DNA from: Dehalococcoidia bacterium
Lineage (GTDB): Bacteria; Chloroflexota; Dehalococcoidia; UBA2979
Assembly (NCBI GenBank): GCA_963667465.2
Contig: CAXXDN010000002.1
Coordinates: 544,001 to 608,000 of the forward strand
Reading direction: 5' to 3'
DNA: 64,000 nucleotides
The notes beneath the pieces are model-generated. The model searched no databases. It worked only from the letters and a program-made list of their open reading frames with translations, and was not told where the DNA came from. The stretch's first letter is position 1. Every line of letters begins with the position of its first letter. The position numbers were made by a program, and so were the translations under genes. Of this stretch, positions 27,494-31,276 are shown piece after piece.

Positions 27494-29929
27494 ATGCTCG
27501 TCTCCCTCAAGTGGCTGCGCGACTACGTCGACCTTCCGGACGACCTCGACGTCGAGGCGTTCGCGGAGCGGCTGACGATGGCCTCGGCGGAGGTCGAGGG
27601 CATCGAGCGCGTCGGCGGCTGGGACCGCGAGCTGGTGACCGTCGCCGAGGTGCTCTCGGTCGACCCGCACCCGAACGCCGACCGCCTCAAGCTCGCGACG
27701 GTCGATTGCGGCACGCCCACGCCGCATACGGTGGTCTGCGGCGCGCCGAACGTCGCCGCCGGGCAGCGCGTCGCCTTCGCGCGCGTGGGCGCGACGCTCG
27801 TCGATCCGCGCAGCGGCGAGAGCGCGACGCTCAAGGCCGCGCGCATCCGCGGCGTCGAGTCCTCGGGGATGGTGCTGTCCGAGCGCGAGCTGGGGCTGTC
27901 CGAGGAGCACGAGGGCATCCTCGAGCTGCCGGGGGACGCGCCGGTGGGCGCGCCGCTCGCCGACTACCTCGGAGACGTGGTGCTCGACGTGCACACCTGG
28001 CCGAACCGCGCCGACATGATGAACATGGTCGGCGTCGCCCGCGAGGTCGCCGCCGTCCTCGGCTCCGCGCTGCGCCTTCCGGACAGCGCCCACGCCGAGA
28101 GTGACGAGGCCGTCGAGGACGCCGCCGCCGTCGCGATCGACGATCCGGACCGCTGCGCGCGCTACATCGCCACGGTCATCGAGGGCGTGCGCGTCGGGCC
28201 CTCGCCGCGCTGGCTGCAGGAGCGCCTGCAGGCCGCCGGGCAGCGCCCGATCAACAACGTCGTCGACGTCACGAACTACGTCATGCTCGAGCTCGGCAAC
28301 CCGCTGCACGCCTTCGACGCCGACCGCCTGCAGGGCACGGTCGTCGTGCGCCTCGCAAGCGAGGGCGAGCGGCTGAGGACGCTCGACGGCGAGCACCGCG
28401 AGCTGAGCGACGACACGCTGCTGATCACCGACGAGAGCGGCCCGATCGCCCTCGCGGGCGTGATGGGCGGCCTCGAGAGCGAGGTCCACGAGGGCACGAC
28501 GCGCGTGCTGCTCGAGGCCGCGCAGTTCGACCCCGCGAGCATCCGCCGCACCTCGACGCGGCTGCGGCTGCGCAGCGAGGCCTCCTCGCGCTTCGAGCGC
28601 GGGCTCTCGCCGGAGCTGGCGGAGCACGCCTCGCGCCGCGCGACGCAGCTGCTGGTCGAGGTCTGCGGCGGCACGGCGCGGCGCGGCACGGTCGACGTCT
28701 ACCCGCGACCGCAGGGCGCCGCCCGCGTGACGCTGACCCGCGACCGCCTCGACACCGTGCTCGGCTTCCACGTCCCCGACGCCGAGGTTGAGTCAGCCCT
28801 CCGCACGCTCGGCTTCACGGTCGCCCGTGAGGGCGGCGCGGACGGCGGCGCGGAGCGCTTCCTCGTCGAGTCGCCGTGGTGGCGTACCGACGTGACGATC
28901 CCCGACGACCTCGCCGAGGAGGTCGTGCGTATCGCCGGGTACGACCGGCTGCCGGCGACGACGGTGCGCGGGCGCGTGCCCTCGTACGAGCCGGCGCCGC
29001 TGCCGGCGCTGCGCGACCACGTGCGTCGCGCGCTCGCGGCGGCGGGGCTGCAAGAGGTGATCAACTACTCGCTGACCACGGGCGAGACGCTGAGCCGCGT
29101 CCGGCCCGCCGCCGAACTGGAGGCGAACGCGCCGCTGCGGCTGCGCAACACGCTCTCCTCGGAGCACGAGGTGCTGCGCACCTCGCTGCGCCACTCGCTG
29201 ATCGAGACGGTCGACCGCAACCTGCGGGCAGGCGCCGACGAGATCGCGATCTTCGAGGCAGGGCGCAGCTATACGCCGCGTCGTGGCGAGGACGGCCCGT
29301 TGCCCGACGAGCGCGAGGTCGTCGCCGGCGCGCTCTGCGGCGTCGAACGCGACCGCTGGGGCAGCCCGCTTGAGCGTGCCCTCGGTTTCTTCGACGCGAA
29401 GGGCGTGCTCGACGAGCTGGGCGAGCGCCTCGGCGTCGCCTTCGAGTACGAGCCGCACGAGGAACACGGCCTGCTCGCCGGTCGCTGCGCGCGCGTCAGC
29501 GTCGGCGGGACGGCCGTCGGCACGCTCGGCGAGGTGCACCCCGACACGCTTGAGGCGTTCGGCGTCGAGCAGCCGGTCGCGCTGTTCGAGCTCGACCTCG
29601 CGGTGCTGCTTGAGGCCACGCCCGGACGGCGCAGCGCCGAGCCGGTGCCGCGCTTCCCGGCGGTGGAGCAGGATGTCGCGCTCGTCGTCGACGAGGGCGT
29701 CCCGGCGGGTGCGCTGCGGGCGCTCATCGAGCAGTCGCGGCTGGTCGCGGAGGCGCGCGTCTTCGACGTCTACCGAGGCGAGCAGCTGCCCGCGGGCAAG
29801 AAGTCGATCGCCTTCGCAATCCGCTACCAGGCGTCCGACCGCACGCTCACGAGCGAGGACGCCAACCGCGAGCAGGCACGCATCCTCCAGCGCCTCGCCC
29901 GCGAGCACGGCGCGGAGCAGCGTGTGTAG
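27494..29929 (+). CDS. pheT: Phenylalanine--tRNA ligase beta subunit
   Basis: MLVSLKWLRDY, HPNADRL, VCGAPN, RGVESSGM, INNVVDVTNYVMLE, RFERG, DLAEEV.R, FDVY.G...GKKS. ATG at 27494. Confidence 0.97.
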   Translation: MLVSLKWLRDYVDLPDDLDVEAFAERLTMASAEVEGIERVGGWDRELVTVAEVLSVDPHPNADRLKLATVDCGTPTPHTVVCGAPNVAAGQRVAFARVGATLVDPRSGESATLKAARIRGVESSGMVLSERELGLSEEHEGILELPGDAPVGAPLADYLGDVVLDVHTWPNRADMMNMVGVAREVAAVLGSALRLPDSAHAESDEAVEDAAAVAIDDPDRCARYIATVIEGVRVGPSPRWLQERLQAAGQRPINNVVDVTNYVMLELGNPLHAFDADRLQGTVVVRLASEGERLRTLDGEHRELSDDTLLITDESGPIALAGVMGGLESEVHEGTTRVLLEAAQFDPASIRRTSTRLRLRSEASSRFERGLSPELAEHASRRATQLLVEVCGGTARRGTVDVYPRPQGAARVTLTRDRLDTVLGFHVPDAEVESALRTLGFTVAREGGADGGAERFLVESPWWRTDVTIPDDLAEEVVRIAGYDRLPATTVRGRVPSYEPAPLPALRDHVRRALAAAGLQEVINYSLTTGETLSRVRPAAELEANAPLRLRNTLSSEHEVLRTSLRHSLIETVDRNLRAGADEIAIFEAGRSYTPRRGEDGPLPDEREVVAGALCGVERDRWGSPLERALGFFDAKGVLDELGERLGVAFEYEPHEEHGLLAGRCARVSVGGTAVGTLGEVHPDTLEAFGVEQPVALFELDLAVLLEATPGRRSAEPVPRFPAVEQDVALVVDEGVPAGALRALIEQSRLVAEARVFDVYRGEQLPAGKKSIAFAIRYQASDRTLTSEDANREQARILQRLAREHGAEQRV

Positions 29930-30091
29930 GACCGGCTCCCGCCGCCGCCTCGCGGCCCGCGCACTCCCGGCCCTTGTCCGGCCTTTGTCATTTCTGGAAG
30001 GTTGGAGCATACTCCAGCCATGAGTACCGGAAACTGGTTCGGGAGTCTTGTGCGCCGCGTCTTCGGGGGCGGCGGGAATGGGGAGGTGGCG

Positions 30092-30826
30092 ATGGCCACG
30101 ACAGAGGACTGGGCGGGCCTCAGCCAACGGCTGATGTCGAGCGTCGGGACCGACGTGCCGCCGATCGCGATCACCTTCTCGGACGCGCCTCCCGACGGCG
30201 TGGACGCCTTCGACGACCCGATGCCGCCGCCGCTCGAGGACGGCCGCACCGGCCGCGTCTCGGCCGGCTGCGTGTTCTGGATGAAGTCCACGGACCGCAC
30301 CTTCTCGACCGTCGCCGAGGACCACGGCAACTGTAGCGTCGGCAGCCTCACGCACGGTCTCAAGACGCTCGAGGAGGTCGGCGGCAACTCCGACGTGGCC
30401 GCGATCCTCGAGTGCGGCTGGGTGACGATGGACATCGTGCCGCTGATCCCGGTGGTCACGGAGAAGCCGGGCGCGATCACCTACGGCCCGCTCGCCGGAA
30501 CGCCGATCGACCCGGACGTGGTGATGCTGCGCGTCACCGGGCGCCAGCTGATGGTGCTGTCAGACGCGCTGCCGGACCTGAGCCTGCAGGGCAAGCCACA
30601 GTGCCACATCGTCGCGATGGCGAAGGAACACGGAGTCGCAGCCGCGAGTGTTGGCTGACAGCTCAGTCGTGTACGGACCGGGATGTCCAACTCCGAAATG
30701 ACCTGCGCGATTCCGGCAAACCAGCTGGCCGACGTCGTCTCGAAGATCGAGGCGGCCGGCGGCGCCGACCTTGCCGTGGCGGGCTACGCCGCCGAGGATG
30801 CGAGGCGCTTCCCTCCGGTGAACTGA
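30092..30826 (+). CDS. DUF169-like Cys-rich protein with in-frame UGA (candidate selenoprotein)
   Basis: Frame has AGCVFW, HGNCSVG, PQCHIV, then SVG-UGA(30656-30658)-QLSRVRTGMSNSEMTCAIP and stays open for 55 more codons to TGA 30826. Start is ATG 30092 (GGAGGT SD) or ATG 30020. Confidence 0.8.
30659..30691 (+). promoter_or_regulatory. Candidate bacterial SECIS hairpin
   Basis: GGAC(30675-78)/GUCC(30685-88) stem closing a CGGGAU loop that starts 21 nt after the UGA, with possible further GU/AC pairing below. Folded by eye only. Confidence 0.5.
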
Positions 30827-30856
30827 CGCCGAGGGCGCGCTGGCAGCGAATACCGG

Positions 30857-30885
30857 ACGGGGCGGCTCAGCCGCCCCGTTTGCTT
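30857..30885 (+). terminator. Intrinsic terminator-like hairpin between convergent genes
   Basis: acggggcggc-tca-gccgccccgt followed by ttgctt. Confidence 0.7.
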
Positions 30886-30919
30886 GCCCTCGGGAGTAGC
30901 GGCGTCGGGAGTAGCGGCG

Positions 30920-31276
30920 TCAGGCCAGGGCGGCCTGGGCGCGTGTGGCGAGCTGGCCGAAGGCCTCGGGCTCGCGGGCCGCGAGGTCCGCAAGCATCTT
31001 GCGGTCGATCTCGATGCCGGCGCGCTTGAGGCCCTGGATCAGGCGGCTGTAGCTGAGGCCGTGCAGCCGGGCTGCCGCGTTGATGCGCACGATCCAGAGG
31101 CGGCGGAAGTCACCCTTGCGTTCGCGCCGGTGGTCGGTCGCGTAGCGCATGGCGTGCAGCACCGACTCGTTCGCGACCTTGAAGTTGCGATGGCGCTTGC
31201 CACGGTGGCCGCGTGCGCGGCGGAGGATCTTCTTGTGGCGGGCGCGTGTGGCGACCCGATTGCGCGTGCGCGGCAT
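30920..31276 (-). CDS. rplT: 50S ribosomal protein L20
   Basis: R.RHKKIL, YA..HRR.RK.DFRRLWI.RINAA, SYSRLI.GL, DRKMLADLA. Confidence 0.97.
   Translation of the reverse strand: MPRTRNRVATRARHKKILRRARGHRGKRHRNFKVANESVLHAMRYATDHRRERKGDFRRLWIVRINAAARLHGLSYSRLIQGLKRAGIEIDRKMLADLAAREPEAFGQLATRAQAALA

Follow-up and report, generated by a model that had tools for sequence, protein, structure and literature searches.

The locus and its reading frame

This report concerns a gene of the DUF169 family located at positions 30092 to 30826, on the forward strand, of a 64,000-nucleotide stretch of contig CAXXDN010000002.1 (here called the window) from a Dehalococcoidia bacterium. The gene is interrupted by an in-frame TGA. 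In the original prediction, made from the DNA letters alone, this codon was read as selenocysteine (Sec) standing at a conserved Cys position. None of the refuting conditions set out with that prediction turned out to hold. The interpretation is supported by the Sec machinery of the host, the alignment with Cys homologues, the occurrence of the same UGA in related genomes, selection on the downstream frame, and constraint on the nucleotides that follow the UGA. The probability that 30092-30826 represents a genuine selenoprotein gene, with the UGA at codon 189 specifying Sec, is estimated at about 0.88. The features on which this reading depends are as follows (window positions).

30092 to 30826, + strand: DUF169 coding sequence of 244 codons plus stop, with predicted Sec at codon 189 (Pfam PF02596 match; full-length Cys homologues)
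30656 to 30658, + strand: UGA, predicted selenocysteine codon 189 (TGC or TGT in 18 of 18 stop-free matches; invariant Cys column in a 34-sequence alignment)
30659 to 30705, + strand: candidate bacterial selenocysteine insertion sequence (SECIS) zone, +1 to +47 after the UGA, an imperfect stem-loop within the coding sequence (invariant in 11 of 11 Sec-form genes)
30675 to 30688, + strand: apical hairpin GGAC-CGGGAU-GUCC with a 4-bp stem and a 6-nt loop (seen in the sequence; unchanged in the related contig L083)
30824 to 30826, + strand: true stop TGA (in 8 of the 11 Sec-form genes the stop is TAA or TAG)

As had been predicted, the internal TGA at 30656-30658 is in frame within SVG-*-QLSRVRTGM (its wider context is ...AAASVG-TGA-QLSRVRTGMSNSEMTCAIP...), and the same frame extends for 55 codons beyond it, ending at the TGA of 30824-30826. 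Reading the internal TGA as U yields a protein of 244 residues; translation table 11 yields 188 residues, or a 218-residue open reading frame (ORF) that begins at an upstream TTG. The start at 30092, which gives 244 residues, agrees with the closest homologues, which align from residue 1. The codons around the UGA had been described as unusually rich in A/T endings, and this enrichment is confirmed: 6 of the 16 codons from 186 to 201 (the TGA itself counted) end in A or T, versus 18 of 229 in the rest of the gene (Fisher p 0.002).

The read-through protein matches the Pfam DUF169 profile (PF02596) with residues 14 to 217 on profile positions 2 to 208 of 209 (E 1.8e-16; 61 bits versus a cut-off of 27), and the match spans codon 189. 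A protein search returned 4648 relatives. The closest full-length ones are 239 to 249 residues long, show up to 84% identity, and are named DUF169 proteins from metagenome-assembled genomes (MAGs) of Chloroflexi, Dehalococcoidia or Acidimicrobiia. In an alignment of 34 subfamily sequences, with identities down to 27%, the invariant columns are C60, W63, Y131, C189 and R193, and H78, C81 and C171 are conserved in 90% or more of the sequences.

Distribution and evolution of the Sec form

A six-frame search of 61 genomes (the window's own and 60 relatives) found the gene in 28 of them, with 31 matches in total. Eleven genes, those of the host and of 10 of the other 18 genomes of its genus, are 93 to 100% identical and contain exactly one internal TGA, always at codon 189. 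All 18 extracted stop-free matches, 8 from the same genus (74 to 81% identity) and 10 from other genera, carry TGC or TGT in the codon 189 column, within SVG-C-QLSRVRTGM. The predicted replacement of a Cys residue is thus borne out in every stop-free match, as well as by the invariance of C189 in the 34-sequence alignment.

A search for the UGA in other genomes had been proposed as a check, and the codon is shared by 10 species-level genomes of the genus, by the contigs L082 and L083, and by contigs assembled from the sequencing runs of other studies. L082 and L083 come from a strict degenerate DNA pattern for G-U-QLSRVRTGM that was run on genome and metagenome collections. The genome collection returned 10 records, nine of them Dehalococcoidia or Chloroflexi MAGs and one (L082) an unclassified 568-bp contig in which the downstream frame runs off the contig end after 42 codons; most of these records probably represent the same species as in the 61-genome search, L082 being an extra one. 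The metagenome collection returned a single contig, L083, whose protein is 82% identical to that of the window gene. The lineage of this contig is also represented among the database proteins, by P0123, which has 237 residues and ends in ...AAASVG. The contigs from other studies' runs, those of two further strains (X8 and X15), keep the TGA; X8 has 13 differences from the window and X15 has 11, none of them located in 30650-30705. X15 comes from an RNA library and shows presence, not proven transcription. Runs X1 and X5 contain one and the same 2675-nt contig, which may come from the source sample itself, and are not counted as support.

Among 401 genomes of the phylum, PF02596 has a match in 115, and a TGA lies within the match only in the host genome; this tally includes one stop-free match from an unpublished genome (G097), on which nothing else rests. 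The statement that the Sec form is found only in one clade therefore covers one phylum sample plus the strict DNA pattern in the genome and metagenome collections. A partial DUF169 match in G339 was considered as another Sec form and was rejected as a frameshifted Cys form. The gene, L053 (G339:C35), is of the classical DUF169 type, and its +1 frameshift falls within a C/G homopolymer immediately 5' of the GCYGCRE motif; this is either a sequencing error or the mark of a broken gene. As a separate observation, G276, a genome of about 1.4 Mb from the same class, has 7 separate DUF169 matches on several contigs, an unusual expansion for a small genome.

A maximum-likelihood tree built from 29 rows places all 12 Sec rows in a single clade (support 86/88) that branches from within the Cys rows. 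This clade is sister to the Cys clade of the same genus, both fall inside a starred 20-row clade, and the outgroups are all Cys forms. The tree left out L038, which is N-terminally incomplete, and has L040 on a very long branch. The simplest reading of this topology would be a single Cys-to-Sec change, with a Cys codon having given rise to the Sec form once, recently, within a single sub-clade of an uncultured genus.

The frame beyond the UGA evolves as coding sequence. In the downstream part, 55 codons long, the 11 Sec genes differ from one another at 16 codons, at 12 of them purely synonymously; the upstream part has 76 variable codons, 57 of them synonymous. A comparison of the window gene with L083 gives 57 identical codons, 97 synonymous changes and 33 replacements over 187 upstream codons, and 26, 21 and 7, respectively, over 54 downstream codons. 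None of the 12 full-length Sec lineages has a break in the downstream frame, which ends with TAA, TAG or TGA at the homologous place. Judged from these substitutions, the downstream frame is under purifying selection.

Directly after the UGA, a second kind of constraint is seen. The 47 nucleotides that follow the TGA are identical in the 11 Sec genes and, together with the TGA and the 6 nucleotides before it, make up the longest invariant run of the gene (56 nucleotides), the next longest being 29. None of the 56 sites varies in the Sec clade, and 0 of 20000 shuffles within codon-position classes gave a count as low. In the Cys sister clade (7 genes), 8 of the same 56 sites vary, an unremarkable number that was reached by 3914 of 20000 shuffles. 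What is constrained is therefore the RNA of the Sec forms and not the protein. At the codon level, the Sec forms use AGT, CGT, GTA, CGG, GGG and GAA; the usual codons at these places in the Cys forms of the genus are AGC, CGC, GTG, CGC, GGC/GCC and GAG. The Sec forms also have TCC (Ser198) where most Cys forms have CCC or CCG (Pro). The SECIS would thus have been built mainly by synonymous codon changes and one Pro-to-Ser change. L083 differs from the window in the SECIS zone at +9, +33 and +36, all synonymously, and 12 of its 16 post-UGA codons are identical to those of the window, versus 71 of 185 amino-acid-conserved codons elsewhere (Fisher p 0.007).

The hairpin noted in the original prediction is present at +17 to +30 after the TGA, with GGAC at 30675-30678, CGGGAT at 30679-30684 and GTCC at 30685-30688. 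Its loop, CGGGAU, has G at positions 2 to 4 and starts 20 nt after the UGA. The bacterial SECIS model, as given in the part of a 2026 review that was covered (PMC13188914), has a loop of 3 to 9 nt, an upper stem of 4 to 16 bp, G in the first two loop positions, and 16 to 37 nt between the UGA and the loop. The hairpin falls within this geometry with its 6-nt loop, 4-bp stem (the minimum allowed), G at loop position 2 and 20-nt spacing. It is intact in both Sec lineages, and in L083 it is the minimum-free-energy hairpin, with a pair probability of about 0.96. Decoding of the UGA would be directed by a SECIS stem-loop within the 47 nt 3' of the codon; the apical hairpin is a candidate for the one bound by SelB.

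Host selenoprotein genes and alternative explanations

The host genome comprises 2.97 Mb in 2 contigs (C1 and C2), with 70.7% GC, and is 93.6% complete. A search for the Sec machinery, which had also been proposed as a check, found every component: SelA (425 bits), SelB (299 bits, above the curated cut-off), SelD (358 bits, itself with 1 in-frame TGA, in SCGG-U-AGK) and one tRNA-SeC(tca) at C2:1551059-1551155. With this set, UGA codon 189 would be decoded as Sec and the gene would encode a full-length 244-residue protein of the DUF169 family. SelA is encoded in all 19 genomes of the genus, and the Cys sister species are therefore also Sec-capable.

A genome scan based on GC content at third codon positions, which looked for TGA codons flanked by coding-like sequence, returned 109 candidates. 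Ten of these, with selenoprotein-like motifs, were picked for a Pfam scan, and in 7 of the 10 a Pfam domain spans the TGA above the curated cut-off. The seven are an AhpC/TSA peroxiredoxin, an FdhA-type molybdopterin enzyme, a thioredoxin-like protein, two UGSC-family proteins, a rhodanese-CBS protein and a ferredoxin-thioredoxin reductase beta chain. An eighth, CMD/AhpD-like, scores 21.2 bits versus a cut-off of 23, and the remaining two match no family. Because of the seven genes with Pfam domains across the TGA, the host is, by its predicted gene content, a selenoprotein-rich organism. Dehalococcoidia are listed among the bacteria with the most selenoprotein genes in the part of the BSepDB paper that was covered.

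Most of the other candidate SECIS elements of this genome have the loop 18 to 20 or 26 nt after the UGA, with the loop sequences GGUCU, CGUGC, CGUGA, GUG or GGC, and in spacing and type of loop the DUF169 hairpin is similar to them. The genome's UGSC-family proteins and its other function-unassigned selenoproteins share with the DUF169 gene the decoding system and a loop located 18 to 20 nt after the UGA. They differ from it in that their hairpins have 6 to 8 bp and short GUG, CGUGA or GGC loops, whereas the DUF169 hairpin has 4 bp and a 6-nt loop.

Several other TGA-containing genes of the host were recorded during the scan. On C1, an ORF at 587206-587466 (+) and a paralogue with its TGA at 587072 are small ORFs with the pattern ...SLCCGN.GEPGC-TGA-... 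and no Pfam match. One of them runs on into a His-rich tail, EHHHHDHPHAH, and a strong hairpin, GAGCCC-CGUGA-GGGCUC, starts 11 to 12 nt after the TGA; these paralogues may be metal-binding selenoproteins. On C2, three tandem thioredoxin-like genes (TGA at 1163478, 1164887 and 1165500, - strand) have the motif W-U-x-x-C, and their candidate SECIS hairpins show compensating changes (GGCCCGU/ACGGGCU, GGCCCAU/AUGGGCU and GGCCUGU/ACAGGCU). The same contig encodes four D-U-GSCT paralogues, with TGA at 956176 (+), 315221 (+), 912254 (-) and 496571 (-), and the two that were scanned match Pfam UGSC (PF24696) across the TGA. The coding-signal scan also picked up, on C2, four near-identical stretches ...VSVLLALSVTGD-TGA-AGTDTS.VTCSL, with TGA at 771405, 782343, 782676 and 789000 (+).

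A number of observations weigh against a selenoprotein gene at 30092-30826, most of them related to the RNA structure. In the main Sec clade, the folding model prefers a competing fold, with a pair probability of about 0.83 versus 0.16 for the hairpin; this competing fold cannot form in L083. The extended imperfect stem-loop from +1 to +47, which contains the hairpin, has a predicted energy of -11.1 kcal/mol in the window and -9.7 kcal/mol in L083, 45% of mononucleotide shuffles reach -11.1 kcal/mol, and the Cys forms fold about as stably. Because of this, folding energy is no evidence here, and its use to tell Sec from Cys forms failed in a genome of such high GC content. The core hairpin alone reaches -3.3 to -4.8 kcal/mol, compared with a published stability criterion of -7.5 or lower, and the energy of the extended fold is shuffle-like. 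The 4-bp apical stem, at -3.3 kcal/mol, compares poorly with the values of about -9 to -14 for most other candidate SECIS hairpins of the genome. A search of 30500-30900 against Rfam (E up to 10) found no SECIS; its only four hits are weak and to unrelated small RNAs. Two Sec lineages differ in the SECIS zone, too few for a real covariation test, and the Sec-form genomes are close kin, so that the counts given above are not independent.

The last such observation comes from the wider Pfam family. In a phylum sample of 26 sequences, C60, C81, C171 and R193 are kept in 22 to 25 of them, and the residues at position 189 are 12 C, 9 D, 4 G and 1 S. The motif given in the original prediction, S.GC..SR, is therefore right for the subfamily, which reads SVGCQLSR, and fails for the Pfam family as a whole. 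The presence of Asp and Gly at this position weakens the label 'catalytic residue of DUF169' on the family-wide scale. As a separate observation, seven genomes of the genus g118 (loci L066 to L072) encode a DUF169 GDGGGR form, with Asp at 189, beside ORFs that by eye resemble BchL/ChlL and a Mg-chelatase subunit.

Against the reading as a selenoprotein gene stand four alternatives. The first is true termination at the UGA, which would leave a 188-residue protein, with or without a separate 47-residue peptide starting at ATG 30683. Such an in-frame ATG (Met197) is found 8 codons after the TGA, and termination probably competes with Sec insertion under selenium scarcity in bacterial Sec decoding. 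However, a split gene would lose residues 189 to 196, including the invariant C189 and R193, and codons 189 to 196 are intact in all Sec lineages, the only L083 change there being synonymous. Since the Cys forms have Met197 as well, it is not a new start. A split or truncated product is very improbable on these grounds.

An even slimmer chance is given to a pseudogene, in which a nonsense mutation became fixed in one clade and the downstream frame is decaying. The weakness of the SECIS hairpin would fit this explanation, as would the fact that gene callers stop the protein at residue 188 (P0011, P0028, P0123 and P0150). A decaying pseudogene is nevertheless excluded for practical purposes, because the 55 downstream codons are open in all full-length Sec lineages and are synonymous-rich, with a ratio of synonymous to nonsynonymous changes like that upstream (12:4 versus 57:19 among the Sec genes, and 21:7 downstream against L083). 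In addition, the TGA was kept in L083 while 97 of 187 upstream codons changed synonymously, and it is only in the Sec forms that the nucleotides after the TGA are invariant.

Equally improbable is read-through of the UGA with insertion of Trp, Gly or Cys, be it through near-cognate decoding or an alternative code. TGA is the terminal stop of this gene and of 2 other Sec-form genes, so there is no reassignment across the genome; the aligned residue is Cys, as in known Cys/Sec pairs; and the host has a full Sec system together with TGA genes in known selenoprotein families. Finally, a sequencing or assembly error in the record can practically be dismissed, as the same TGA is found in 10 other genomes, 11 further loci of two collections, and contigs from other studies' runs. 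With these alternatives weighed, we infer that Sec is actually inserted at codon 189, as judged from comparative sequence evidence.

Family context, structure and possible function

The gene resembles other members of Pfam DUF169/COG2043 (PF02596) in matching almost the full length of the profile with a score above the gathering threshold and in the common C60, C81, C171 and R193. It differs from them in belonging to a distinct subfamily with the motif SVG-C/U-QLSRVRTGM, in having a predicted Sec at the fourth position, and in its score of 61 bits (52.8 in the genome scan), compared with up to 198 bits for other members in the phylum.

Supplementary lists aside, the texts covered nowhere identify DUF169, PF02596 or COG2043 as a family of selenoproteins. 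The claim that DUF169 is not among the standard selenoprotein families stood up: it is absent from Table 1 of Zhang et al. (2006; PMC1794560), which records 33 Cys-to-Sec conversion events in 25 families, and was not found in the portion of Table 1 covered in the 2026 review PMC13188914. That table includes DUF166, DUF3179, DUF1573, DUF1858, DUF2284, DUF523 and DUF466, and a term search of the covered text of the review gave no PF02596, COG2043, IPR003748 or DUF169. The covered text of the BSepDB paper has no occurrence of 'DUF', the BSepDB website being outside the coverage. Many recent selenoprotein families are defined by NCBIfam models, whereas this DUF169 protein matches none (0 NCBIfam families at E up to 0.01). 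Like the Cys-to-Sec selenoproteins of Zhang et al., the DUF169 gene has the UGA at a conserved Cys column, and a candidate SECIS follows it immediately within the reading frame; its host is capable of Sec insertion, most of its homologues have Cys, and the Sec form has a narrow phylogenetic range. It differs from them in lying outside their 25 families and in the unusual shortness of the SECIS stem. As a mechanism, reading UGA as Sec where homologues have Cys is entirely standard; what is new is the family.

No literature on the function of DUF169 was found. An AlphaFold2 model from the 34-sequence alignment has a mean pLDDT (predicted local distance difference test score) of 95.9 and a pTM (predicted template modeling score) of 0.92. 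In this model, each of the four conserved Cys positions maps to a helix N-terminus or to the residue just before one, with 60 at helix 60-65, 81 before helix 82-87, 171 before helix 172-180 and 189 before helix 190-196. Positions 171 and 189 belong to consecutive strand-loop-helix units, which suggests that they meet at one sheet edge. A sequence search of PDB gave nothing below E 0.2, and a Foldseek search of the model against PDB gave nothing at E up to 0.001. The best hit of a wide VIA-align search, 9ry8_A (Z 4.7, root mean square deviation 4.0, 118 residues aligned), is below the noise level stated for the tool, as are the many thiolase/ketosynthase chains that follow it at Z 3 to 4.

The model is consistent, at a lower level of certainty than the Sec assignment, with a functional centre formed by residue 189, beside the conserved Arg193, together with Cys60, Cys81 and Cys171. 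The three fixed Cys residues, the variable Cys/Asp/Gly/Sec position and the Arg four residues farther on suggest either a metal or iron-sulfur (Fe-S) site or a nucleophile. The former, with residue 189 as a variable fourth ligand, is quite possible, at somewhat less than even odds; the latter, a redox or persulfide-type nucleophile, is nearly as likely. A nucleophilic Cys or Sec, as the sequence pattern suggests, would act on an anionic sulfur or selenium compound. Within the subfamily, where it is invariant and placed at a helix N-terminus, residue 189 is a plausible catalytic residue, as originally proposed. A possible parallel is offered by Sec-metal selenoproteins listed in the covered part of PMC13188914 (FdhA, the NiFeSe hydrogenase subunit FrhA and (2Fe-2S)-binding proteins), since three Cys residues plus a variable Cys/Asp/Gly/Sec resemble an exchangeable-ligand site; the difference is that these proteins have no sequence or fold relation to the DUF169 protein, in which the metal site is putative.

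The Sec form of DUF169 may handle sulfur or selenium compounds, for which there are weak leads in the covered parts of two papers. A DUF169 gene adjoins that of a TauE/SafE-like permease among the nitrate-fitness genes of Desulfovibrio G20 (PMC4001038), and a STRING link connects a member of the family with YedE, a putative selenium transporter (PMC5322559). In the covered part of a third paper, another DUF169 gene adjoins MerR and YHS genes near hgcAB in Nitrospina (bioRxiv 10.1101/648329).

The surroundings of the gene in the window contain the following additional features.

29985 to 30013, + strand: promoter-like TTGTCA-17 nt-CATACT (consensus match only; 1 site versus 0.0 expected in shuffles)
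30082 to 30086, + strand: Shine-Dalgarno-like GGAGG, 5 nt 5' of the ATG at 30092 (seen in the sequence)
about 30854 to 30882, + strand: GC-rich 13-bp hairpin 3' of the stop, possibly a terminator (RNAfold -30.5 kcal/mol for 30840-30895)

The promoter-like element is located between an upstream 826-aa ORF, pheT-like by eye, and the DUF169 start. A terminator had been claimed after the stop; the 13-bp GC-rich hairpin is there, but a consensus terminator scan called 0 sites in 29900-31000 and the T-run is short. The neighbours, named by eye from their translations, are pheT upstream and rplT-rpmI-infC downstream. This neighbourhood of housekeeping genes is kept in only 4 of the 13 loci compared, all in the same genus, and no conserved gene partner was found in the more distant genomes among these loci. 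Phylum-wide neighbour clustering gave only lineage-specific synteny and one cluster of probable wrong-frame ORFs.

For annotation, the consequence is direct. Gene callers cut the protein at residue 188 in every Sec-form record seen, and because of this the databases carry a product that lacks the invariant Sec/Cys189 and Arg193. For the study of SECIS evolution, the gene would provide a clean, datable case of SECIS birth inside a coding sequence, with Sec and Cys sister clades in the same genus and only a few changes, most of them synonymous, between the SECIS and the Cys forms.

For the family, the implications might be wider. Sec is almost always found at a functional site, which would make residue 189 functionally critical in a widespread family. 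DUF169, with its 4648 relatives, its presence in 115 of 401 genomes of the phylum and no solved structure, gains in this residue a concrete target for mutagenesis and spectroscopy, and position 189, Arg193 and the three conserved Cys residues are places to test for function. A fuller proposal, which is doubtful as a whole, is that DUF169 represents a selenoprotein family overlooked so far, with a fold unrelated to any solved one. At a Cys60/Cys81/Cys171 metal or Fe-S centre, residue 189 would then either act as an exchangeable fourth ligand or face the substrate, and the Sec form would be a selenium-ligated or selenium-activated variant in sponge-metagenome-associated bacteria of the Dehalococcoidia type.

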